Of a stretch of DNA of 27,412 bases, positions 300-27,412 are shown piece by piece; position 1 is the first letter of the stretch; each line of letters opens with the position of its first letter. The notes below the pieces were generated by a model. The model was not told where the DNA came from. It was given only the letters and a program-made list of their open reading frames with translations, and searched no databases. The stretch lies in contig JBHLKY010000035.1 of NCBI GenBank assembly GCA_048886185.1, forward strand, positions 1 to 27,412, in the 5' to 3' direction. A program made the translations under genes and the position numbers. Source of the stretch: Candidatus Hermodarchaeota archaeon. GTDB taxonomy: Archaea; Asgardarchaeota; Heimdallarchaeia; Hodarchaeales; Hodarchaeaceae.

Positions 300-858
300 G
301 ATAAATACCAATTTTCAATAGTTTGGTAAAATTATTCTATTAGTTATTTCAAATAATAGATGAGTTTTTTTTCATTACGATGAAAAATAAATGTTATTAC
401 ATAGAAAATAAATAATTAGCATTTCAAAATTAAAAGCTTCTTAACCTTCCTCTTTAACCCTGTAATTTCTTGTCAATCTTTCTCGTTTTTTGTTTGGGTA
501 ACTTATTTCTTGTTAAGGAAGCAATTTGTATTAGATCGGCTAGGAGCGAAGAATGTACTTCTTCATCGAACCTGAATTCTGATTTTTTTCTTCTTCTACT
601 AGGTATTTTTCTCTCTTCCCAATCTATGAATTCATTGATAGCTTTTTCTGAATTTATTTAACAGTATTATAACAATTATAAGTTATAATTTTTGTTTTAC
701 TCACTTTTTTTTTGAAATATGGCATTGATGAGAATTACTCCTTGTCATTTGTAGTTCATGAATAAAACAATTCATTGATAATCTATTTTCATTACCGTAA
801 CAATAGACTATTAATAGAGTGAAACTATAGTCTTACTTATTTGAAAAAGAGGTTTTTT

Positions 859-2244
859 ATGGAAATATTTCAACCAGAGGAAAAAATTTTTGATCCAAAA
901 GCTGATAGTACTCAAAGAATCAGATCTAAATTAGTATCTACTTCGTTTATGCGCTTTTTAGGTGTTACTGAGCTTCCGTTGCGATCTCAATGGTTAATTC
1001 AGAAATTTCTTCTTATTGCAAATTTACAAACGTCTTTAATTATTATTTCTAGTACTTTCTATGTCTTGTTTGTTATTGATAGAATTGGTTTCAGTACTTT
1101 GGGTTTGCTTCTTTCTATTAGTTTTATTACACAAGCGATTCTAGATTATCCAACTGGTGTTATTGGAGATTGGATTGGACAACGTTGGAGTCTAGCTATC
1201 GCTTTTTGTGGCTATGGACTTTCTTATTCAGTTATTATCCATGCTACATCTGTTACAGATTTTTTGTTAGTATATCTCCTGAATGCTTTTGCTAGCTCAC
1301 AGCAATCTGGTGCTTTAGGGTCTTGGTTTGATAATAATTACAAGGTGTCAGTAGGTAAAACAGATATTGATCGAAAAACCTATCGAGAACTTTTTGGGAG
1401 GCAAGCAATACTTTCTAGGTTTGTAACAGCAGCAATGATAATTTTAGGTGGAGTCACAGCAACAGTTTTTTTTCGGGAATTACTATTTGTGGTACAAGCA
1501 TTTGGTATGTTTGGATTAGCTTTATTGTGTTTGATTCTTATAAAAGATTATCCTGAGATTTCTAAGCCCGAATTATCTTTTAGAAAATATTTCAATCTTT
1601 TGGGAGAAGGATTACAATTCAGTTTTGGTTCCAAACACATGTTATTTTTCATTGCAGGTGTAAGTATTGCTAGTACTACTTTTTTAATTTGGGGTAATAT
1701 GATTCTTTTTCCTATGTATTTTGGATATACTGGATCTGATGGGGGAGCTGCATTTATTCGTTTTAGTTTTTATGTCCTAACTGCTTTCACTATGCCAAAA
1801 GCTGGAAAATGGAGTAAAAATCTTAATGCCCGTAAATGGATTCCACGCTTGCGACTGATTCATACAGTTATTTTTTATGCATGTTTTATATTGATTTTTA
1901 CCATTTTCCCCTTTAAAAATGATTTGAACTTATTGGCAATTGTAGTAGTAGGATTTACTTTCCTTCTTACAGAATGCTTATTAGCTACTGACCTTTTTCT
2001 AAGACAACGATTGCTTATTGACGTGGTTCCTGATACGAACCGAAATTCTGTTTACAGTTTACTACCCACATTGAATTTTTTAGTTTCAGCTCCATTCATA
2101 TTCATATCTGGTACTATTATTGAATTAATGGGTGTCCCTTTAACTTTAATCGGTTGTATGTTATTGGGATTTATCTCTTCTGGCTTCTTCTTTCTCTCTC
2201 TTCGATCTCTACCCAAAGGTATTTTAAAAGAAGAAGAGGAGTAG
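859..2244 (+). CDS. Major facilitator superfamily transporter
   Basis: About 12 hydrophobic segments; MFS motif A-like DYPTGVIGDWIGQRW. ATG at 859 follows GAGGT (849-853), so it is preferred over the track's TTG at 841. Confidence 0.88.
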   Translation: MEIFQPEEKIFDPKADSTQRIRSKLVSTSFMRFLGVTELPLRSQWLIQKFLLIANLQTSLIIISSTFYVLFVIDRIGFSTLGLLLSISFITQAILDYPTGVIGDWIGQRWSLAIAFCGYGLSYSVIIHATSVTDFLLVYLLNAFASSQQSGALGSWFDNNYKVSVGKTDIDRKTYRELFGRQAILSRFVTAAMIILGGVTATVFFRELLFVVQAFGMFGLALLCLILIKDYPEISKPELSFRKYFNLLGEGLQFSFGSKHMLFFIAGVSIASTTFLIWGNMILFPMYFGYTGSDGGAAFIRFSFYVLTAFTMPKAGKWSKNLNARKWIPRLRLIHTVIFYACFILIFTIFPFKNDLNLLAIVVVGFTFLLTECLLATDLFLRQRLLIDVVPDTNRNSVYSLLPTLNFLVSAPFIFISGTIIELMGVPLTLIGCMLLGFISSGFFFLSLRSLPKGILKEEEE

Positions 2245-2757
2245 ATAAAAGGCAAAATTATCTTGACAATAGTGATTCTTTAGCAAAAAAGCATGTTATC
2301 GCTAAGAATCTGCTAAAATTGGGGAAATCACAGGAAATTTGAAATGATGAAGTTAATAAGATATACACCCAATGTTACGGAAAAATATGACTTAGATTTC
2401 ATTCTCTATTTGAAAAACTTCACTTAGATGAAGTATGAAGAGAGTAGGTCAATTCATATACAGTCAAATTATTGTCTGATGACCGTTACTACCTCAATCA
2501 ACAAGTGAAGCTATCGCTTCCTCAGATTATATAAGCAATGAACTCATTACTAAAAATTCAGAAACCCAAGAAATCATTGTGTTCTTACTTGAAATTTCCG
2601 TATGGGACCCATTTCAGGTATTTACCCTAATAAATACCTTCCATAACCTATCCAAGGAATTGTTTCAAAAAAAATGTGATATAGGAATAATTTTCATTTC
2701 ATTGATGTCATATTATTTACTAGCTATTCTAAAGTATTAAAAATTAATCTATTAAGA

Positions 2758-4065
2758 GTGGATTATTTGAAAGTAGCAATTATCGGATCAGGAATAGGTG
2801 GATGTTCTGCAGCATACTTTTTAAAGGAGCTAATAACTGAATCCATTGATATTACTGTTTTTGAGAGTAACAATAAAATCGGAGGACGCTTACTTAACAG
2901 AAAAATAAAACCAGTTGTAGTAGAATTAGGAGGAACTTTCTTTCATTCAATGAATTTAAATATGCAATATTTTGTGGAAAAACTTTCCTTACAAAAAGAA
3001 AAGTTCATCTTACCTAAAATTGGGGTCTGGAATGGATCAAAATTCATCTATAAATCTAGTTCCATGACTCTAGTAACTAATCTCAAATTATTAATTCGGT
3101 ATCGAAGAAGTATGTTAAATTTATTGAGTATATTAAAGAGAGCAAAGCGAGAAATATTAAGTGTTTATGCAAATAATAGATTAGACAAGCATTATAATAC
3201 ATGTGAGGAATTATTCGGATCCCCTTTCCTTCTAGATTGCACCAGAAAAACCTTGGAAGAAGTTCTCAAAGAGAATGGAATATCTTCAAAACTGATTAAA
3301 GAGATAATAGAACCAGGTACTAGGTATATTTATCATCAAGACATAGACATTGATGGTTTTGCAGGTCTTGCAACGATAATCGCTTCTGACGGTTCTCCGA
3401 TTTATAAAATAAAAAATGGAAATGTTCAGCTTAATAAAGCTCTTCTAAAATCAGTAAATGCTAATGTTAAAATAAATCAGAGAATTGTTAAAATAAGTAG
3501 GATCGAAAATAAAGCTTTCCTATTAACAACACAAAAAGGGGACTCAGAAGAATATGATGCGGTTTTTATAGCAGCACCCCTAGAACAAGCAGATATAGAA
3601 TTTGAAAACTTAGCTATACCTGATTTAGAGAAAAGAGAATTTCGTAAAGTCTATATAAAACTCATCGAAGGCCAAATAAATCCAGAGTATTTTGGAATGA
3701 CTAGTGTTTCAGAGATACCTGAATTACTACTCACTACTGCTGATTTTACAGGTCCTTTCGATAATCTTGAAACTTTAGGGAAGTCTAAAGCAGGAAACTT
3801 TGTGTATAATCTTTTCTCTCCTCGTCCCATACCCAATGATTTAATTGAAAAAATGTTTAGAGAATGTGTAATTGAAGAAGATTTCTACTGGGAATATGCC
3901 CATCCAGTACCTAAACCAGTAACACAGAATTTTCAACCGTTTCTCTTAGAGACTCGGCTTTTATATATTAATACTGTGGAGTCAGTAGCCTCAACAATGG
4001 AGACAATGACAGTAGCTGCTAAAAATGCTGTTTTATTATTAAAGAAAGAGTTGGAAAAAGAATAA
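2758..4065 (+). CDS. PCYOX1: Prenylcysteine oxidase/lyase homologue (FAD-dependent; Prenylcys_lyase family)
   Basis: N-terminal FAD motif [15 protein letters not shown] and GGRL. Collinear similarity to human PCYOX1 as recalled: [21 protein letters not shown] ~ [45 protein letters not shown] ~ [49 protein letters not shown] ~ [25 protein letters not shown]. Confidence 0.85.
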   Translation: [435 protein letters not shown]

Positions 4066-4106
4066 CACTGAGGTCAATCTTCTTGGAAAATAGGTTTTCA
4101 TTCTTA

Positions 4107-4135
4107 TATATAGCAGATGTGTAATAACCAACGAT
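4107..4135 (+). repeat. Dispersed repeat, left (L) motif, orphan copy
   Basis: TATATAGCAGATGTGTAATAACCAACGAT matches 12276-12304 at 24/29 without gaps; its 3' 21 nt match 22235-22255 at 17/21. Confidence 0.7.
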
Positions 4136-5293: not shown

Positions 5294-5440
5294 TTACATT
5301 TTCTAGATTTTTCTAGTATTAAAAGAAATGTGTACATTGCACTCTTTGTACACCGATATTTATAAGCTTAATTCTCCATTGATGAAACAAACATTAGATT
5401 TGAGATAATGTTAAGAATTTATTAATTTGTGGGATCAAAA

Positions 5441-6154
5441 ATGGCGTCAAAAGAACAACCTGCTTTAGTCCTTATGGATGTACATCGTGATTTTGTTTTG
5501 GGTGAAACTATAGTTCATGCCCTTTGTGGAGTCACATTGGAGGTATTTGAAGGTGAATTTGTTGTTATTCTTGGGCCAAGTGGATCAGGAAAAACAACAT
5601 TGCTAAATCAAATTGGAGGTATTGATTCCCCTACAAAAGGGTTCATAAAAATTAAGGGAGAAGAAATTACTCAATGGGGGCCAGCAAAATTATCTGAATA
5701 TCGTCGGCATAAAGTTGGATGGATCTTTCAGTTCTTCAACCTTATTCCTTCATTACGAGTATGGGAAAATGTTGGTCTTGCACTGGAATTTAAAGGTGAT
5801 CACAAAAATGTGAAAGAGCGTTCTTGTAAAATATTGGAGGCAGTAGGGCTTGGTGATAAAGTAAATCGCTTCCCAAGTCAACTCTCTGGAGGAGAACAAC
5901 AGCGCGTCGCCATCGCGAGAGCACTCGTGAAAAATCCTGATATAATTGTGGCTGATGAACCTACTGGAAATTTAGACTTTATTACAGGCAAAAAAATCGC
6001 CGACCTGTTGAAACAACTTAATAAAGAATCTCATGGAACATATATCATCGTTTCTCATGATGTAAATATGACAAAAATAGCTGAACGTGTATTTCACCTC
6101 AGAGATGGGAAGATTGTTTCCAGCAATGAACAAATTGCTAATATTAAAAACTAA
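5441..6154 (+). CDS. ABC transporter ATP-binding protein (LolD/MacB/SalX type)
   Basis: Walker A GPSGSGKT, signature LSGGEQQRV, Walker B IIVADEPT, H-loop VSHD. ATG at 5441 preferred (track GTG at 5429). Confidence 0.95.
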   Translation: MASKEQPALVLMDVHRDFVLGETIVHALCGVTLEVFEGEFVVILGPSGSGKTTLLNQIGGIDSPTKGFIKIKGEEITQWGPAKLSEYRRHKVGWIFQFFNLIPSLRVWENVGLALEFKGDHKNVKERSCKILEAVGLGDKVNRFPSQLSGGEQQRVAIARALVKNPDIIVADEPTGNLDFITGKKIADLLKQLNKESHGTYIIVSHDVNMTKIAERVFHLRDGKIVSSNEQIANIKN

Positions 6155-6170
6155 ACTAGGGGGAAAATGA

Positions 6171-8612
6171 TTGAAAATCCTGACGAAAAAGATTTTTCGT
6201 GAGATACGCTTTAATAAATTCAGATCTATGGTTATAATTCTTACTGTAATGCTTACTATTACTTTAGGAATCGGTTTATTTACTTTAAAGCAATCACTTG
6301 ATGAATCTTTAGCGGCTCACCACAAAACTTTGAATAATGCTGATCTTCGAATTCGTTTAAACAACTATAATCTTACAGAGAATAATGTATTAGCATGGTT
6401 GGAAAATCCTAAGATACATGAAGCAGGCATTTCAGATTTAGAAGGACGGATATTTCATTATTCTTCTATAATATATAAAAATAAAACCTACAAAGCTTAC
6501 TTAATTGGGATTGGGGAACATAATACAATAAATCAATTAAAACTCGTGAAAGGAACTGATCAGTTATCAGATTCACAGCCATTGATTAATCAGCTTTCAA
6601 CAAATCAGGTGCTTCTAGAAAGACATTTTGGGAAGATGTTATTTGGTGGAGGAGCAGAGCTTAATGATGAACTTACAATTCAGATAAATAATACATCAGC
6701 AATCTCTATGGAAATATCAGGATTTGTGGTCGATTCTGACTATCTATATCCTGTAGATGAACAAACAGGATTAGCTGCTGTAGGTAATTTACCAATAATC
6801 TACATGCCACTTAAAATCCTTAAAACTCATCTTCAAGTGAATGGAATCAATGAAATTTTAGTAAAAACTATCACACGTTCTCATAGCGCTAGTCAAATTG
6901 CTGATCAAGCCCTTAATACTATTATTGGTGGTAATCAAATTGAAACTGTTTTATATTGGGATAAAACTCCCGATATGGAATTCTATGAATTTGATCAACC
7001 TATGGAAAAATTGGGTTTAGTTTTTGGGATCTTTGGATTGATAGCAGGTGCAACAGCGATATACAATTCATTATCGAAACTTATTTTGGCTCAAAGGACT
7101 TATATTGGAGTTTATGGGGCACTTGGAGCAAAAAAACGTTCCGTTTTAACTCATTACATTGGATTTGGAATTACACTGGGGATAATCGGAACAGGATTAG
7201 GATGGATGGGGGCTACAATCATTAATTTTGCAATAGTAGAATTCTATACATTCTATTATGGCTTTCTCACCACGAGAATTGGATTTAATCCAGTGATTTG
7301 GATCGGTGGTTCATTATTTGGATTGATAATTATTTTCATTTCTTCATTAATTGCAACCTTACCTGTTCTTCACCTCACACCTCGTGAAGCTATGGTTGCT
7401 CCTTATACCAAAACCCAACTCGGAAAAGAACCATTATTAGAAAAAATAGCTTCTAAAATAGGTCTATTCAAGAGCTCAACTTCCAAACTTCCTCTTAGAA
7501 CAGTATTTATGAATAAAAAACGCTCTTTGACTACGACAATTGCTATAGCAACGTCAATGATCATTTTCGTCACATCAATCAGTCTGGTCTCAGATATTCT
7601 ATATAGTATTGATCAGGATTACTCACATTATGAGAAATATGATGTAAAGATTTCGTTACGAGAACCTACTTCAGAAAAAGAGATTAAGGATTGGTGTGAT
7701 CAAATTGGGGGAATAAATATCGTTGAGGGGTATATTTCAACACAAGTATTTGTATCAGATTCTAATAGTGACCCACAAAGGGTCCCACTTGAAGCGTTTC
7801 ATACTAATTCCTCTTTACGAGAATATCATATTATCAAAGGAAATATTAAAGAGAAAAATGATCTTACCAAGGATAAACTCTTGGTTGGTAGCACTCTTGC
7901 AGAGGATTTGAATGTGAAAGTTGGAGATAAGCTAAATCTGACTATTAGTCAAGATAGTATAATTTCTCTGAAAATAGTTGGGATTACTGGCGAATTGTAC
8001 GACAATGCTCTATTATGGACCGTTGAAGCATTACGAGAGTATATTGGAATTTCAGAAAATGTCAATGCATTAGTTTTTAGTTATACAAACGGGTTAATGG
8101 AAAACGAGAAGGCTCAAATAGAACTTCAAATAAAAGAAAAATGGGATCCATACATCTATGCGGAAAGTGGAGAAACTTTAAAGACAATGAAATCGATGAT
8201 AGAAACCTCAACAAGTATTCTCTTCCTTATTGGTTTTTTGGGTCTTGGAGCTCTAGTACTATTTACATTTTCTAGCATGTCCTTAGCAATGATAGATCGG
8301 GAAATGGAATTCTTAGCTCTTCGAGCCATGGGCTCAAAAAAAAGAAATATTCTTAAAATTCTCTTTTTAGAGAATTTTTTCTATGGAATTTTTGGAATTA
8401 TTCTCGGTGTTCCATTAACACTCTCATTATTACGTCCTGCTTTCGATTTTATACAGAATGATATTTATATTACAGTTTTTGTCCCTATTGAACTATGGTT
8501 AAGTGTGGCGGGATTGATTTTGTTTTCAGTTTTATTATCTACTAGCATTCTTACATGGAGAACCTGGCGGAGTTCTTTGCCAGATATGCTTCGAAATAGG
8601 ATGATTTCATGA
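6171..8612 (+). CDS. ABC transporter permease, duplicated FtsX/MacB-type domains
   Basis: Two large extracytoplasmic domains each followed by FtsX-like TM blocks (IGVYGALGAKKRSV; REMEFLALRAMGSKKRNI); 16 nt downstream of the ATPase. Confidence 0.92.
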   Translation: MKILTKKIFREIRFNKFRSMVIILTVMLTITLGIGLFTLKQSLDESLAAHHKTLNNADLRIRLNNYNLTENNVLAWLENPKIHEAGISDLEGRIFHYSSIIYKNKTYKAYLIGIGEHNTINQLKLVKGTDQLSDSQPLINQLSTNQVLLERHFGKMLFGGGAELNDELTIQINNTSAISMEISGFVVDSDYLYPVDEQTGLAAVGNLPIIYMPLKILKTHLQVNGINEILVKTITRSHSASQIADQALNTIIGGNQIETVLYWDKTPDMEFYEFDQPMEKLGLVFGIFGLIAGATAIYNSLSKLILAQRTYIGVYGALGAKKRSVLTHYIGFGITLGIIGTGLGWMGATIINFAIVEFYTFYYGFLTTRIGFNPVIWIGGSLFGLIIIFISSLIATLPVLHLTPREAMVAPYTKTQLGKEPLLEKIASKIGLFKSSTSKLPLRTVFMNKKRSLTTTIAIATSMIIFVTSISLVSDILYSIDQDYSHYEKYDVKISLREPTSEKEIKDWCDQIGGINIVEGYISTQVFVSDSNSDPQRVPLEAFHTNSSLREYHIIKGNIKEKNDLTKDKLLVGSTLAEDLNVKVGDKLNLTISQDSIISLKIVGITGELYDNALLWTVEALREYIGISENVNALVFSYTNGLMENEKAQIELQIKEKWDPYIYAESGETLKTMKSMIETSTSILFLIGFLGLGALVLFTFSSMSLAMIDREMEFLALRAMGSKKRNILKILFLENFFYGIFGIILGVPLTLSLLRPAFDFIQNDIYITVFVPIELWLSVAGLILFSVLLSTSILTWRTWRSSLPDMLRNRMIS

Positions 8613-18134: not shown

Positions 18135-18545
18135 CTAGAGAACTACTGGATCGATTACTTCTATATCTTTTATTCGACTAAATGCTTGGTCATGAGTCAC
18201 TAAATGTGTAATCCCTGCTTTTTTCATACAGATTAATATTGTCACATCACGCCCACCCAACCCAAGGTGTGAAACTCTTCTCATAGTGGCTAGTAACTCA
18301 TCCAAGTCTCGTGAAGTAAACTCCAATGTTTCAAATTGAGCTAATTGGAAAATATTACTCTTTTCAAATCCTTCTATAGACCCTAGTCTTTTAAAAAGAT
18401 AATGAGCAACCTCCACTATTATAATTGTGCTAACGGCAATATTTCCCGAATTAATCTGGGGATCAAGAAAAGAAACAACAGATTCATGTTCAGGAAGGTT
18501 TGCATCAAAATAGTATGCCCAAATATTACTGTCAACCATATACAT
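18135..18545 (-). CDS. vapC: PIN-domain toxin (VapC-like)
   Basis: PIN acidic residues in VDSNIW, IIVEVAH, GGRD and VTHD; start abuts the antitoxin stop codon. Confidence 0.9.
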   Translation of the reverse strand: MYMVDSNIWAYYFDANLPEHESVVSFLDPQINSGNIAVSTIIIVEVAHYLFKRLGSIEGFEKSNIFQLAQFETLEFTSRDLDELLATMRRVSHLGLGGRDVTILICMKKAGITHLVTHDQAFSRIKDIEVIDPVVL

Positions 18546-18782
18546 TTAGAGGTGAGGCCCCCATATTGATTTGAGCTCTAATGGATCAATTTTATGAGCT
18601 TCAACAGTAATACATGCTTTTAATTCTAATATAAATTTTTCAGGATCGATAAATCGCTTAATAATAAGGGCACCATCTTTTTCTCGAATAATAGCCTTTT
18701 GGCCAGGAGTTAAACCTAATCGTTCACGTTCTTCTTTGGGAATGGTAATTCTTCCACGATCATCAATTTCAATAATACCCAT
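18546..18782 (-). CDS. vapB: AbrB/MazE/SpoVT-family antitoxin (VapB-like)
   Basis: IEIDDRGRITIPKEERERLGLTPG AbrB motif; ATG at 18782 preferred (track 18812). Confidence 0.9.
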   Translation of the reverse strand: MGIIEIDDRGRITIPKEERERLGLTPGQKAIIREKDGALIIKRFIDPEKFILELKACITVEAHKIDPLELKSIWGPHL

Positions 18783-18814
18783 TGCATTACCCATTCCCAC
18801 TCTCAAACCCACTC

Positions 18815-21958: not shown

Positions 21959-22120
21959 TCACGTCATTTTTTCATTTTTTCCATAAAGTATTAGTACGGG
22001 GCAATCTTGAGCTAATATAACATCTGAAATTTGATGATAAAAAGAGTGAAAGACTCCTTCATCAATCCATTAAAATGAAATGCTTCTGAAAAGAACTGGT
22101 ATTAACAATAGGACTTTCAT
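21959..22120 (-). pseudogene. Possible alpha/beta-hydrolase remnant
   Basis: MKVLLLIPVLFRSISF*WIDEGVFHSFYHQISDVILAQDCPVLILYGKNEKMT* with an internal TAA at 22070-22072; CPVLILYG resembles the hydrolase strand before the catalytic acid. Confidence 0.28.
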
Positions 22121-22234
22121 TTACTGATTACTCTATTTTAGTCATGGCAAAACTTTTCGAAAACAATGTATACATTACCACGTTTGATAGTTACTTTAAA
22201 GGACTCATTCCAAATAATGAATAACTAACAAAAT

Positions 22235-22375
22235 AGATGTGCAAAAACCAAGGTTCAACGACATCAGAACCATGATGAAAAAAGTGTGAATTCCCTCCTC
22301 ACTCTAACAAGTCACGGATTGAGGAAACTACTTGGAATAGAGCTGTTCGACTTCGGGTTGGGACAAGACATAGAG
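22235..22375 (+). repeat. Two-part dispersed element, copy 2
   Basis: L motif AGATGTGCAAAAACCAAGGTTCAACGACAT and R motif AGCTGTTCGACTTCGGGTTGGGACAAGACATAGAG; see matches to 12276-12412, 4107-4135 and 9321-9355. Confidence 0.7.
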
Positions 22376-22581
22376 AGCCGCGATACCAAAAATAGTGCCA
22401 AAGGGAAGAGGGTCAAGGCGGCAATGACCATAGTACCAATACGACTCGAATTTTGATACTGGAGAAGACGCTTACAACTAAGAATAACGACGAAAGCATA
22501 GACCAATACAACTAAAGCAATCCCAAAGAGGAAAACAGAGAGAAATGGGGTAAGACGATTAAGAATGGCAGGGCTATCCAT
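22312..22581 (-). CDS. Small 2-TM membrane protein whose last 21 residues are read from the antisense of the repeat element; possibly truncated
   Basis: Two TM helices, then LSMSCPNPKSNSSIPSSFLNP encoded by 22312-22377, which overlaps the R motif. Confidence 0.5.
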   Translation of the reverse strand: MDSPAILNRLTPFLSVFLFGIALVVLVYAFVVILSCKRLLQYQNSSRIGTMVIAALTLFPLALFLVSRLSMSCPNPKSNSSIPSSFLNP

Positions 22582-22708
22582 CTCAATCTCTAGCCAGTCA
22601 GAAATAAGAATATGAAAAGAAAAAGGTGAAAATTGAATATTGACTGTTTTTACTCTTTTTACTAAAAATGGTAAAGTATAAATAACCGTAAAATTACCCT
22701 AGCCAATC

Positions 22709-23185
22709 ATGTATTCCTTCGCTCGAAGAATTAAGTATCCCACAGACAAGCAGTTAATAATTTGGAAATTGAAGAGAGATCAATTGAACCAAAAAGAAAT
22801 TGCTGATAAAAGAGATGTGACAATCGGTTTCGTGAGTAAAAGCCTGTCTGAGGCCAATAGGAGAATTGAAGGATTACTTGAAAATGCAGCGAATGGAAAT
22901 AAGATATCTCTTAAAGTATTAAATGGAGAACTCGGGTATGCTCGTGGTAAAAGCCACATGTTTGATGTGAAGGCATACATTACTTTTTCACCAAAGAATG
23001 GGGTACAAGTCTGGTATGAAGACAAAGGAGATTGCATAAACTGCGGAAAATATGGTTATTGTCGTGAAGTAATTCAACAGGAGTTTGCAGAGCGAAATTT
23101 AAAATTGGAATCCCCATCTTTACAACCCACATTGCTCATTGAAAAATTAATCACGGAGATTGAAAAACGGTTGGAGGTAGAATAA
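22709..23185 (+). CDS. HTH DNA-binding protein with C-terminal Cys cluster (probable archaeal regulator)
   Basis: LNQKEIADKRDVTIGFVSKSLSEANRRI helix-turn-helix; GDCINCGKYGYC (CxxC-x5-C). Confidence 0.75.
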   Translation: MYSFARRIKYPTDKQLIIWKLKRDQLNQKEIADKRDVTIGFVSKSLSEANRRIEGLLENAANGNKISLKVLNGELGYARGKSHMFDVKAYITFSPKNGVQVWYEDKGDCINCGKYGYCREVIQQEFAERNLKLESPSLQPTLLIEKLITEIEKRLEVE

Positions 23186-23204
23186 CCTGACTCAGTACCA
23201 ACCT

Positions 23205-25766
23205 ATGTGTATGGATCCACCGAAACAAAAACGTTTAGTCATTAGTTATAAGGAACCCCTGATCCTCTTCGTCATTTTTTTGCTATTTCTGATCCCCCCA
23301 GTCGCCCCTCAGGAAGATACTACTCCTCTTATATTCTCAAATGCTTTCTATGAAGCGAACTATGATGGAATTGATCGTGTGAACGCTCTAGTCCAGACTA
23401 CAGATGGGGGGTTTGCTCTGGCAGGTAGTACCTATGGTGGTATGTGGTTGGTGAAAACCGACGCAAATGGAGTAATCCTTTGGAACAAAACTTATGGCGG
23501 ATCATACGCTTCCACTCTAGTCCAGACTACAGATGGGGGATTTGCCCTGGCAGGTATTGACAGCTACGAAATCTATTACAAAGCAAGATGGATATTGGTG
23601 AAAACCGATGAAAATGGTAACTTTCTTTGGAATCAGACTATTTTTGATAAACATGAAGCCAGAGAATGGAGGAATTGTCCTTCCGCATTGATCCAGACTA
23701 CAGGTGGAGGATTTGTTCTGGCGGGTACTACTCCATTTGTAGGACCTGACGCAAATGCAGATATATGGCTAGTCCAAACAGACGCAGATGGGTTAGTGCT
23801 TTGGAATCAAACGTATGGAGGACCATGGGTTGATGAAGCTTCCAGTCTAATTCAGACTGCAGATGGGGGGTTTGCAATCGCAGGAAAAACCTGTTTGTGT
23901 GGTGCTGCGGCCTGTGATATGTTGTTAGTGAAAACGGATGAGAATGGGGTTCCTTTATGGAATCAAACCTTTGAAGGACCAGAGGGGGATTATGCTTCCG
24001 ATCTAGTCCAAACTACGGACGGAGGATTCGCCTTTGTAGGAACTACTTGGTTAGATATGGTAGATGGTTTGGCAGACGTATGTTTGGTAAAAACTGACGC
24101 GAACGGAGTCATCCAATGGAACCGAACCTATGAGGAAACTGGAATTGTTCATGCTTCTTCCTTGGTACAAACACAAGATGGGGGATTTGCCCTCGCGGGT
24201 ACAAAGTACGGTTCTAACTCTGACATATGGGTGGCGAAAACTGAAACAAATGGGGAAATATTCTGGAGTCAGACTTATGGAGGAATATGGAATGAAGAGG
24301 CTTCTACTCTAATAGAGACTACAGACGGTGGACTTGCGTTCGCAGGAACCACTTCGTCATTTGGTGCTGGTGGGGTAGACATGTGGCTCGTAAAAACTAA
24401 TATGAATGGAGTAATAGAATGGCATACAGCGTATGGTGGTACAAAGACTGATGATCTTGATGCCACTAATTTGATTCAGACTCCGGACGGCGGATTTACG
24501 CTCGCAGGGGTAATCACTTCTTATGGTGTCGGTGGTCCTGCAGAGGACATATGTCTGGTAAAAACTGATACAAAAGGAACGATGACATTTATGAGGACTT
24601 ATGGAAAGAAAATGTATGATGAAACTTTCACCCTGATCCAGACATCAGATGGGGGATTTGCGCTTGCAGGAATCACCAGTTCATCTGCTATTGGTGGCGG
24701 GTATAGAACATGGATAAGCGACCCCCGGCCGTGGAAAGAAAACCCGACTGATGGAGAAATGTGGTTAATAAAAACTAATGCCAACGGGGTCGTTCAATGG
24801 AATCAGACTTATGGGAAAATAAATCCGTACGGTGACACTGCTCTCCTTCAGACGATAGATGGGGGATTTGCGCTTGTAGGCACCATCAAATCATCTGGTA
24901 CTGATAACGGGAGGATTTTGTTCTTAAAAGTAGACTCAGAAGGAAAAATATTATGCAACCAGACTTACAGAGACTTAGAGTATAATACTGTTTCTGTCCT
25001 AGTTCAAACAATAGATGGAGGGTTTGTTTTTATGGGAACCACGCAACAAGCTCCACTAGAGCCACCTGATGATCCTAGGGACATAATGTTGATGAAAATC
25101 GACGCGAACGGAACTGTACAGTGGAGTCAAACCTATGGAGAACTTGATGATGAGAGAACTCCCGTCCTAGTCCAAACCATTGAAGGAGAATTTCTCCTCG
25201 CAGGCGCCACTTATAGTGAAGATCCTTACCGTCAATGGTTTCTGAGGTTGACGAAAATCAACTCGACGGGTGTAGTATTATGGAGTCAGGATTATCGATT
25301 TCTTGAGTATCATTTTGTTTCGGCCCTAATCCAAACCGAAGACAGGGGATTTGCCCTCACTGGAGGTACTATTCCATGGGGTGATGGAAATCAGGACATT
25401 AGTTTGGTGAAGTTCAATGAAAATGGAGCTCCACTGTGGAGTCGAACCTATGAGGAAACTGGACAGGACCTTGGATCAGCCCTAGTTCAAACTGCAGATG
25501 GAGGATTTGCTATCGTTGGATCCACCACATCATATGGTGCAGGTGACTGGCGCATGTTGCTGGTAAAAACTGATGCGAGTGGATGGCCGATATGGATAAG
25601 GAGCTATGGAAAAGCTGGTAGCAAAAACTTGGGATCACTTGGGATAGAAAGCTCGAGATCACAATCGATTACAAATCATAGAACACCTGGGATGGAAGCT
25701 CTAACCACCTTTACAGTCATAATAGTCCTTATTTCGAAGATGACTAAACATAAAAGGAATAAGTGA
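23205..25766 (+). CDS. Secreted, C-terminally anchored surface protein with 14 beta-propeller-like repeats
   Basis: Signal-like N-terminus; 14 copies of L(V/I)QTxDGGFxxAG...D(M/I)WLVKTDxNG...WxxTYGG; tail RTPGMEALTTFTVIIVLISKMTKHKRNK. Confidence 0.85.
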   Translation: MCMDPPKQKRLVISYKEPLILFVIFLLFLIPPVAPQEDTTPLIFSNAFYEANYDGIDRVNALVQTTDGGFALAGSTYGGMWLVKTDANGVILWNKTYGGSYASTLVQTTDGGFALAGIDSYEIYYKARWILVKTDENGNFLWNQTIFDKHEAREWRNCPSALIQTTGGGFVLAGTTPFVGPDANADIWLVQTDADGLVLWNQTYGGPWVDEASSLIQTADGGFAIAGKTCLCGAAACDMLLVKTDENGVPLWNQTFEGPEGDYASDLVQTTDGGFAFVGTTWLDMVDGLADVCLVKTDANGVIQWNRTYEETGIVHASSLVQTQDGGFALAGTKYGSNSDIWVAKTETNGEIFWSQTYGGIWNEEASTLIETTDGGLAFAGTTSSFGAGGVDMWLVKTNMNGVIEWHTAYGGTKTDDLDATNLIQTPDGGFTLAGVITSYGVGGPAEDICLVKTDTKGTMTFMRTYGKKMYDETFTLIQTSDGGFALAGITSSSAIGGGYRTWISDPRPWKENPTDGEMWLIKTNANGVVQWNQTYGKINPYGDTALLQTIDGGFALVGTIKSSGTDNGRILFLKVDSEGKILCNQTYRDLEYNTVSVLVQTIDGGFVFMGTTQQAPLEPPDDPRDIMLMKIDANGTVQWSQTYGELDDERTPVLVQTIEGEFLLAGATYSEDPYRQWFLRLTKINSTGVVLWSQDYRFLEYHFVSALIQTEDRGFALTGGTIPWGDGNQDISLVKFNENGAPLWSRTYEETGQDLGSALVQTADGGFAIVGSTTSYGAGDWRMLLVKTDASGWPIWIRSYGKAGSKNLGSLGIESSRSQSITNHRTPGMEALTTFTVIIVLISKMTKHKRNK

Positions 25767-25785
25767 AGTATTTAAGGGATACAAG

Positions 25786-27129
25786 ATGAAAAATACATTT
25801 ACTACTAATACTATCAAAAGAATAGTTTATTTAGTATGTTTTATTGGATTAGTCCTCGGTTCCCAGAATTTGATTAATTTCACAGTAGCAGAACCGAGTG
25901 GAAATAACGCAAATACTATGTCAACAATAACGTTCAACACAGAATGGAATCAAATCTATGGAGGAAGTCACATTGAAATAGCTTTTTCGATGATCCAAAC
26001 AGCTGATGGGGGCTTTGCCCTAGCAGGATTTACTGAATCTTATGACGTTGGTCAAGGTGATTTCTGGTTAGTGAAAACCGATGCCAATGGGCAAGCGGAA
26101 TGGAATCAAACCTATGGTGGAAGTCTTCGTGAATGGGCTTTTTTTATGACCCAAACTACTGATGGCGGTTACGCACTAGTAGGGAATACAGCGGCCGGTA
26201 ATGGGGATATCTGGTTGGTAAAAACGGATTCAATGGGTCAACATTTATGGAACCAGACTTTCGGAGGAGCTGATTTTGAAGAGGCTAGATCAATTATCCA
26301 AACAGCTGATGGTGGATATGCTATTACAGGAAATACCCAGTCTTATGGCGCTGGTCTCATTGATTTATTGTTAATCAAAACGGATGTCAATGGGTCAATT
26401 GAGTGGAATCAAACGTACGGTGGAGCATTGGATGAAGGATTTAGTTCTAGATCAGTAATTCAAACAACAGATGCTGGTTATCTTATTGCTGGGAATACTG
26501 AGTCCTATGCAGAAGCTGGTGAGATCTGGTTAATAAAGACGGATATCAATGGGTCAGTCGAATGGGATAGGAATTATGTAGGAACACAAAAACCTACAGT
26601 GATCCAGACAACAGATGGTGGTTATGCTATTGGAGCTGGAGGATATGATTCCACAGTACAATTGATTAAAACAGATACCAGTGGGCAAGTAATATGGAAC
26701 CAAACCCTAAACGGACAATTGCAAACTGAATCTCCTCCAGTTGTTCAAACAGCGGATGGTGGATATGTTATAGGATCTGATGAAATATATTTAGTTAAAA
26801 CGGATGCTAATGGGCAAAAAGAATGGGAAAAAGAATTCGGTGGAGGTAACACTAGATCACTAGTACAAACAACAGATGGCGGATATGTTGTTGCAGGGAA
26901 TAATTACGGAATAAATGGAGGAGACATGTGGTTATTTAAGTTCAATATATCTGAAATAACACCAACAGCTACCACAACAACCACCAGTGTAAGTAAAGCA
27001 ACAACAACCACCAGTGAATCTGAAGCAACCACCGCCACCACAGCAGAAAGTAATCCAAGTTTTGGTCTGGAACTACTCATCTTAACTCTCTCTCTAGTTC
27101 TCTTCATTACGCGGAAACGAAGACGTTAA
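25786..27129 (+). CDS. Secreted surface protein with 7 beta-propeller-like repeats, Thr-rich linker and CTERM-like anchor
   Basis: Signal peptide; 7 QTxDGGY repeats; Thr-rich stalk; tail SNPSFGLELLILTLSLVLFITRKRRR. Confidence 0.88.
   Translation: MKNTFTTNTIKRIVYLVCFIGLVLGSQNLINFTVAEPSGNNANTMSTITFNTEWNQIYGGSHIEIAFSMIQTADGGFALAGFTESYDVGQGDFWLVKTDANGQAEWNQTYGGSLREWAFFMTQTTDGGYALVGNTAAGNGDIWLVKTDSMGQHLWNQTFGGADFEEARSIIQTADGGYAITGNTQSYGAGLIDLLLIKTDVNGSIEWNQTYGGALDEGFSSRSVIQTTDAGYLIAGNTESYAEAGEIWLIKTDINGSVEWDRNYVGTQKPTVIQTTDGGYAIGAGGYDSTVQLIKTDTSGQVIWNQTLNGQLQTESPPVVQTADGGYVIGSDEIYLVKTDANGQKEWEKEFGGGNTRSLVQTTDGGYVVAGNNYGINGGDMWLFKFNISEITPTATTTTTSVSKATTTTSESEATTATTAESNPSFGLELLILTLSLVLFITRKRRR
26968..27051 (+). 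repeat. Coding degenerate tandem repeat (about 27 nt) forming the Thr-rich linker
   Basis: ACAACAACCACCAGTG is identical at 26974-26989 and 27001-27016; protein ATTTTTSVSK/ATTTTSESE/ATTATTAES. Confidence 0.75.
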
Positions 27130-27202
27130 CTCGTTACCTTCCTATCACAAATATTTAGAGAAGAAAAGAAGGAAAAACTCCTTTATCGGAAATTATCTAG
27201 GT

Positions 27203-27412
27203 TTAACGAATACTCTTTCGCTTGGTGATGAAAATAATCAAGCTTAATCCTATTATTGTAGAGAAAATAGTTCCAAAGTTGGTAGGGGAGTTTGATTCAG
27301 ACCGTCCAAGATGTAAAAATACAATATAATCATCTAAAACGAAGATTTTTTGAGACCGTATCCCTGTTTTTGCAACGGTTTCAACCTCGTGAGTAGTAAT
27401 ATCGTATTTGTA
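27203..27412 (-). CDS. 3' end of a membrane-anchored surface protein with CTERM-like tail; begins beyond the window
   Basis: Not in the ORF track. Open for 69 codons from the window end: YKYDITTHEVETVAKTGIRSQKIFVLDDYIVFLHLGRSESNSPTNFGTIFSTIIGLSLIIFITKRKSIR*. Confidence 0.75.
   Translation of the reverse strand, partial: YKYDITTHEVETVAKTGIRSQKIFVLDDYIVFLHLGRSESNSPTNFGTIFSTIIGLSLIIFITKRKSIR

Follow-up and report, generated by a model that had tools for sequence, protein, structure and literature searches.

To our knowledge, animals and plants are the only organisms in which prenylcysteine oxidase has been characterised; there it completes the turnover of prenylated proteins. In mammalian PCYOX1, Tyr221 contacts the cysteine head group and the Y221A mutant has no activity, with loss of substrate stabilisation; the V234W mutant has no activity either, and Y433A keeps it, position 433 being a histidine in the active PCYOX1-like protein (PMC11530802). 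The plant farnesylcysteine lyase (FCLY) returns farnesal to isoprenoid recycling after the turnover of prenylated proteins. An analogous idea is found in the bacterial CmoO/CmoJ system, in which flavin-dependent dealkylation of S-alkyl cysteines recovers cysteine; it takes a different route, employing two flavoenzymes via an alkylcysteine sulfoxide C-S monooxygenase (PMC10863075). The locus compared here with these systems lies on contig JBHLKY010000035.1 (C35), whose 27,412 nucleotides (nt) are hereafter called the window and which belongs to a Candidatus Hermodarchaeota archaeon genome (GCA_048886185.1; 4.84 Mb, 96% complete) of the Asgard order Hodarchaeales. It encodes a 435-amino-acid (aa) flavoprotein that is confirmed as a true full-length member of the PCYOX/FCLY family, as an earlier note on this DNA had proposed from its letters.

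Identity and active site of the archaeal oxidase

The 435-aa protein matches the Prenylcys_lyase family (PF07156) with an E value of 5.5e-58 and 197.2 bits, against a curated cut-off of 27 bits, and covers positions 2-356 of the 363 of the profile; the generic Pfam models are far weaker (Amino_oxidase, 62 bits; NAD_binding_8, 48 bits), and NCBIfam returns only sub-threshold N-terminal matches (protoporphyrinogen oxidase and similar). The top match among PDB sequences is 9fxq, an ancestral PCYOX1 (E 8.4e-46), which is collinear over the whole length (query residues 5-427, chain residues 12-457) at 27% identity, and is followed by amine oxidases at about 1e-7 that rest mainly on the N-terminal Rossmann part. 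The C-terminal block cited in the earlier note is found in the protein and aligns with the C-terminus of PCYOX1. Moreover, an AlphaFold2 (AF2) model built on an alignment of 112 sequences reaches a predicted local distance difference test (pLDDT) value of 96.4 and a predicted template-modelling score (pTM) of 0.94, and Foldseek ranks 9fxq first with it (query TM-score, TMq, 0.90; E 3e-39), nicotine, monoamine, L-amino-acid and protoporphyrinogen oxidases lying at TMq 0.62-0.71 only. No protoporphyrinogen, polyamine or monoamine oxidase, the outcome that the earlier note had named as speaking against its assignment, is the best match by sequence or by fold. Several metagenomic relatives are named 'prenylcysteine oxidase/farnesylcysteine lyase' by the automatic annotation of JGI and 'FAD-dependent oxidoreductase' by NCBI.

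The active site was compared through 9fxq, whose chain index differs by 20 from the residue numbers of PMC11530802, as confirmed on Tyr221, Val234 and Tyr433; the archaeal counterparts of these residues are Y192, A205 and H382. The archaeal protein thus shares with the mammalian enzymes the motif that binds flavin adenine dinucleotide (FAD) and the head-group tyrosine, carries at 382 the histidine of PCYOX1-like, and differs from PCYOX1 in having Ala for Val234. Specifically, the FAD-motif columns (G10, G12, G15, E36 and G42-G43-R44) are invariant or nearly so across the 112 homologues, and position 192 is Tyr in 102 of the 112 family rows, including 23/25 archaeal, 22/29 bacterial (the other seven have Phe) and 57/58 eukaryotic ones. 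Q194, N222, W378, E408, S412 and E415 hardly vary among archaeal, bacterial and eukaryotic members. At position 205, which corresponds to the tunnel residue Val234, archaeal rows have Ala, Val, Ser or Thr, as opposed to Val or Ile in the other rows. Such a pattern agrees with a chemistry that has been retained and a tunnel that may differ. The plant FCLY, at 29-31% identity in the same family, presumably shares the thioether-oxidase chemistry, and differs in that no pathway upstream of the oxidase, such as the one that feeds the plant enzyme, is visible here.

The archaeal protein is also about 40-70 residues shorter than mammalian PCYOX1, without its signal peptide or a KTEL-type retention signal. 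GTG 2758 is the first possible start 3' of the upstream in-frame stop, with no start codon between the two, and the protein begins four residues ahead of beta1 of the FAD beta-alpha-beta fold; because it opens at the FAD motif from the first available start, no N-terminal signal peptide is possible, and the claim to this effect in the earlier note stands. The archaeal relatives, mostly 420-440 aa long, begin at the same motif, and the prokaryotic PF07156 proteins at large (Bathyarchaeia and MAGs, that is, metagenome-assembled genomes, of Actinomycetota, Chloroflexota and Bacillota) are similarly leaderless, of about 420-450 aa and with the same domain set. The enzyme is probably cytoplasmic and, since the signal peptide is absent, unlike in the eukaryotic enzymes, it would be expected to act either within the cytoplasm or on the inner side of the membrane. 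No RNA run is listed among the public runs carrying the gene; the full-length matches are four sediment-metagenome runs from one study, possibly the source data.

Candidate function and competing explanations

The results show the family and fold of the protein, its catalytic tyrosine, the missing leader, its distribution and the lack of CaaX machinery; chemistry, substrate and physiological role are inferred, the mechanism by homology. With moderate confidence, the protein is viewed as a cytoplasmic thioether oxidase for S-isoprenyl- or S-alkyl-cysteines, an accessory employed in salvage or detoxification and not in the turnover of the cell's own CaaX proteins; among the options listed in the earlier note, scavenging is the favoured one. 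By analogy with the described enzymes, the flavin would take a hydride from the carbon beside the sulfur of an S-isoprenyl-cysteine-type thioether, and possibly of other S-alkyl cysteines, the thiocarbenium intermediate would hydrolyse to free cysteine and an aldehyde, and the reduced flavin would be re-oxidised by O2 to yield H2O2. The substrates may be imported with peptides or detritus or be formed endogenously, and the cell would either recover cysteine or detoxify lipid-cysteine thioethers. The gene itself would be a dispensable accessory that moves among Heimdallarchaeia and Bathyarchaeia and is retained by certain archaea of sediments and soils. A flavoprotein that uses O2 is plausible in this genome because it encodes subunit I of a heme-copper oxidase (COX1) and of a cytochrome bd oxidase (C1:45387-46727 and C1:50928-52241, both on the minus strand and within 6 kb of each other). 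The earlier note had inferred exposure to O2 from the presence of the oxidase: the terminal oxidases do show that O2 is usable, and the oxidase gene adds nothing to that.

Some observations weigh against this reading. Clustering of all open reading frames (ORFs) of 42 oxidase loci yielded no conserved neighbour, and thus no conserved gene neighbourhood that would indicate a pathway; the adjacency of UbiA genes to the oxidase in two independent archaeal lineages could indicate a biosynthetic role; and the Ala, Ser or Val found at archaeal position 205 suggests that the tunnel may differ. These last points feed the main rival explanation, namely that the enzymes of the archaeal branch have shifted to a different lipid and carry out C-S, C-N or C-O oxidation of an archaeal isoprenoid metabolite, for instance the product of a UbiA-type prenyltransferase, in biosynthesis or remodelling. 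Specifically, UbiA genes lie directly upstream of the oxidase and on the same strand at one locus of an Asgard family (L008 2892-3782, minus strand) and at four loci of one close Bathyarchaeia lineage (L028 728-1624, L030 4916-5812, L053 4910-5812 and L029 4767-5930, plus strand), the residue at tunnel position 205 is smaller in archaea, and a well-supported branch (100/98) sets the archaeal clan apart. However, the Asgard and Bathyarchaeia UbiA types are unrelated to each other by BLAST, no UbiA is present within the window or in most oxidase loci, and the tyrosine of the cysteine head group is kept in all but two of the archaeal rows counted above; a change of lipid substrate is regarded as possible, though doubtful.

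Much less probable is that the oxidase recycles isoprenoid-cysteine from S-prenylated proteins of the cell itself, in an Asgard precursor of the prenylation cycle of eukaryotes. In its favour, the protein truly belongs to the PCYOX family and its active site is conserved, the genome holds 63 matches to the Ras family (PF00071), and the membrane methyltransferases of the isoprenylcysteine carboxyl methyltransferase (ICMT) family (PF04140) are remarkably many, with 16 matches, 15 of them above the cut-off (e.g., C8:973-1239, C2:241104-241373 and C2:245780-246040), in a genus that has 3-25 per genome vs 0-3 in the other families of the class. However, the ICMT expansion is found in each of the 21 congeners, whether or not they hold the oxidase, and the family is common among prokaryotes without prenylation, being present in 5 of 14 control genomes. 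Moreover, no match to the alpha subunit of the prenyltransferase (PPTA, PF01239) is found among 113 candidates in the 96%-complete genome, and the only match to the beta subunit (Prenyltrans, PF00432) is a sub-threshold one of 22 bits inside a 1977-aa ORF. When 58 of the Ras-family matches were followed to the stop codon, a CaaX, CC or CXC terminus was seen in none of them, and two (C12:150588-151109 and C2:248076-248579) have one Cys as their last residue. The oxidase, in turn, is not found in 16 of the 22 genomes of the genus. There is no evidence of a CaaX cycle in the source genome, which, as opposed to that of mammals, shows neither CaaX prenyltransferase nor CaaX proteins; such a cycle is unlikely, and the endogenous prenylation that the earlier note had listed among its options is not borne out.

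Lastly, it is hardly credible that the gene comes from a eukaryote or a bacterium and entered the MAG through faulty binning: the contamination estimate of about 5% and the patchy, non-syntenic occurrence of the gene would allow it, but the guanine-cytosine (GC) content of the contig (34.2%) is close to that of the genome (35.2%), the gene is intron-free, compact and prokaryote-like, and homologues in six genomes of the genus, some on contigs of more than 100 kb, make contamination unlikely, all of them falling in a single archaeal clan with no eukaryote or bacterium within it. The 'apparent Asgard' origin given in the earlier note is supported accordingly by the same gene in other genomes of the GTDB genus and by the Ras-family matches of the genome, and the named protein relatives of the oxidase are labelled 'Hodarchaeota' and 'Hodarchaeales'.

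Distribution and phylogeny of the family

The PF07156 family is characterised only in eukaryotes, yet it is not restricted to them. Within the Asgard phylum, matches above the cut-off occur in 12 of 400 genomes, all in the class of the window, with 6/22 in its own genus (own genome included), 2/3 in a second family and 4/12 in a third; the remaining Asgard families, one of them with 135 genomes, have none. A motif scan of 185,579 species genomes retrieved three Hodarchaeota/Promethearchaeota records and about 31 of Bathyarchaeota/Bathyarchaeia, the motifs having been built on a 4-sequence alignment that biases the matches to archaea, with bacterial genomes not enumerated. The Bathyarchaeia copies, at 30-35% identity and in the same archaeal clan, are mostly full length and include one from Ca. 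Bathyarchaeum tardum, whose genome is complete; of 301 genomes sampled evenly across the Bathyarchaeia, 6 carry the family. Bacterial members include named proteins of Ardenticatenaceae and of Bacillota MAGs, and the bacterial clusters of the family belong to Actinomycetota, Chloroflexota and Bacillota, Actinomycetota being the commonest phylum among the ESM Atlas clusters with PF07156 on all members. An exhaustive profile-free search of the whole library gave 2,035 cluster representatives with an E value of 1e-3 or lower, 286 of them at 1e-30 or lower. The statement of the earlier note that the family is known mainly from eukaryotes thus gives way to a distribution that extends to about 31 Bathyarchaeia genomes and to bacterial clusters. 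One Heimdallarchaeial genome (G079) contains a second, very divergent PF07156-like gene (L015 1462-2781, minus strand; 24% identity, 46 bits), together with a split or frameshifted copy of the ordinary oxidase (L011/L014).

Two trees, one by FastTree with 224 rows and one by IQ-TREE under LG+C20 PMSF with 105 rows, agree on the main points; many of their 'eukaryotic' rows are labelled by clade membership only. The archaeal sequences form a single clan (support 100/98) and the bacterial ones another (97/88), which joins a supported group (97/95) that includes animal and plant sequences; the rest of the backbone, presumed eukaryotic and partly named, is poorly resolved. Nearest to the archaeal stem is a protist clade, in which an MMETSP transcript, Ceratiomyxa and a MAST-4 stramenopile are the sequences with a name. 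The archaeal clan splits in two: one subclade (81/83) unites two Heimdallarchaeial families with some unlabelled sequences, and the other joins the Hodarchaeales genus to Bathyarchaeia as its sister (100/99). Forcing the labelled Asgard copies together without Bathyarchaeia costs 18.9 log-likelihood units (lnL); because Asgard monophyly is disfavoured yet not rejected (p value of the approximately unbiased test, p-AU, 0.19), transfer between Asgard archaea and Bathyarchaeia may have run either way. When four Amino_oxidase paralogues of the source genome serve as the outgroup, the root falls in the eukaryotic backbone with Archaea as sister to the protist clade (approximate likelihood-ratio test, SH-aLRT, 91). 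This root is not relied on, the outgroup branches being very long and a root on the archaeal stem not being rejected: the latter costs only 4.2 lnL and, in the 105-row tree rooted in this way, the bacterial clan nests inside presumed-eukaryotic, mostly unnamed rows. Concerning the nesting in a eukaryotic or bacterial clade that the earlier note would have taken as a sign of transfer or contamination, the archaeal genes lie outside every named eukaryotic or bacterial subgroup, but the tree does not separate a sister of the eukaryotic enzymes from an old acquisition (p-AU 0.40).

Gene neighbourhood, mobility and evolutionary meaning

The features of the oxidase locus are listed in Table 1. DNA homology with the same-genus genome G008 is confined to the oxidase stretch, with unrelated flanks; the shared segment comprises the gene with about 120 bp upstream and about 45 bp downstream and resembles a single-gene cassette. 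Protein identities to the window, listed as oxidase, flanking orthologue(s) and RpoB domain, are 92%, 69% and 98% for G008; 61-62%, 76-81% and 98% for G003; 42-43%, 73-74% and 94% for G004; 48-49%, 67% and 96% for G019; and 43-44%, none found and 94% for G018. Because the identity of the oxidase to its congeners is out of step with that of the other genes, this comparison, drawn from few genes, points to gain, loss and exchange of the oxidase within the genus.

Table 1. Features of the oxidase locus and their coordinates in the window.
Feature	Position	Strand	Evidence or remark
PCYOX/FCLY-family flavoprotein gene	2758..4065	+	GTG start, 435 aa, TAA stop; ORF list and translation
Prenylcys_lyase (PF07156) region, residues 99-434	3052..4059	+	Pfam; same span from genome profile search
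FAD-binding beta-alpha-beta: GxGxxG at G10, G12, G15; E36; GGR 42-44	2767..2889	+	Alignment of 112 homologues; NAD_binding_8 residues 8-74
Tyr192 codon, counterpart of PCYOX1 Tyr221	3331..3333	+	9fxq alignment and mutant data (PMC11530802)
His382 codon, counterpart of PCYOX1 Tyr433 (His in PCYOX1-like)	3901..3903	+	9fxq alignment
Sole stretch of DNA homology with G008	2639..4109	+	92.5% nt identity, blastn vs L025 5881-7351
Upstream major facilitator superfamily (MFS) transporter (Pfam MFS_1)	841..2244	+	513 bp from the oxidase; context only

The genes around the oxidase vary from locus to locus. An apparent second cluster of neighbours was rejected, being an antisense ORF inside the oxidase gene, and among 119 flanking genes at 35 loci that were sorted by Pfam family only scattered MFS (5), ATP-binding cassette (ABC; 5) and UbiA (5) genes stand out, the UbiA genes being four from the Bathyarchaeia lineage and one from the Asgard locus named above. 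Transporters (MFS, EamA and ABC) often adjoin the oxidase across loci, but they are not orthologous. Specifically, none of the other 41 loci encodes a homologue of the MFS transporter of the window; this transporter also has five or more full-length paralogues at other places in its genome. Downstream of the oxidase by 1.4 kb, a MacB-type ABC pair (5429-8612, plus strand) is composed of an ATPase (5429-6154) and an 813-aa permease (6171-8612) with MacB periplasmic core and FtsX domains, and is not conserved beside the oxidase elsewhere.

Further along the window, a VapBC-like pair (18135-18812, minus strand) consists of a PIN-domain toxin (18135-18545) that abuts a MazE/AbrB-type antitoxin (18546-18812). 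Two short stretches of 66-78 nt are shared at 77-85% identity between the window (22288-22361 and 22562-22626) and L025 (9948-10012 and 10457-10530), about 18 kb from the oxidase in the former and 2.6-3.2 kb downstream of it in the congener, and may be a short intergenic repeat or encode a small RNA. The whole window gave no match in Rfam and tRNA scans. From 22001 to 27412, the GC content climbs from about 32-34% to 40-43%, and no Pfam family matches significantly in the two large ORFs at 23205-25766 (853 aa) and 25786-27129 (447 aa); this end of the window may be foreign DNA.

Full-text searches, with most subscription journals outside their coverage, returned no paper on prokaryotic (archaeal or Asgard) PCYOX homologues. 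The leaderless version found in Hodarchaeales, Bathyarchaeia and several bacterial phyla would place a putative thioether-oxidase family in organisms without recognisable CaaX prenylation and would therefore imply a prokaryotic pool of substrates, be they scavenged prenylcysteines, other S-alkyl cysteines or archaeal isoprenoid thioethers. The ancestral PCYOX1 was expressed well in E. coli, and for this reason the archaeal protein should be easy to test biochemically.

The evolutionary weight of the archaeal oxidase hinges on the rooting of the tree. It is conceivable, though unlikely, that the archaeal clan is sister to all eukaryotic PCYOX/FCLY enzymes and was inherited from a Heimdallarchaeial ancestor, with Bacteria and Bathyarchaeia as secondary recipients; given the patchy distribution, the mobility of the gene and a root that may lie in more than one place, such an ancestry is only one possibility, and the oxidase does not yet inform on the origin of eukaryotes. 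If it were nevertheless the sister of the eukaryotic enzymes, the catabolism of isoprenoid-cysteine thioethers and, by implication, some S-isoprenylated cysteine would be older than eukaryogenesis, and the oxidase would be an addition to the eukaryotic signature proteins with an Asgard root.

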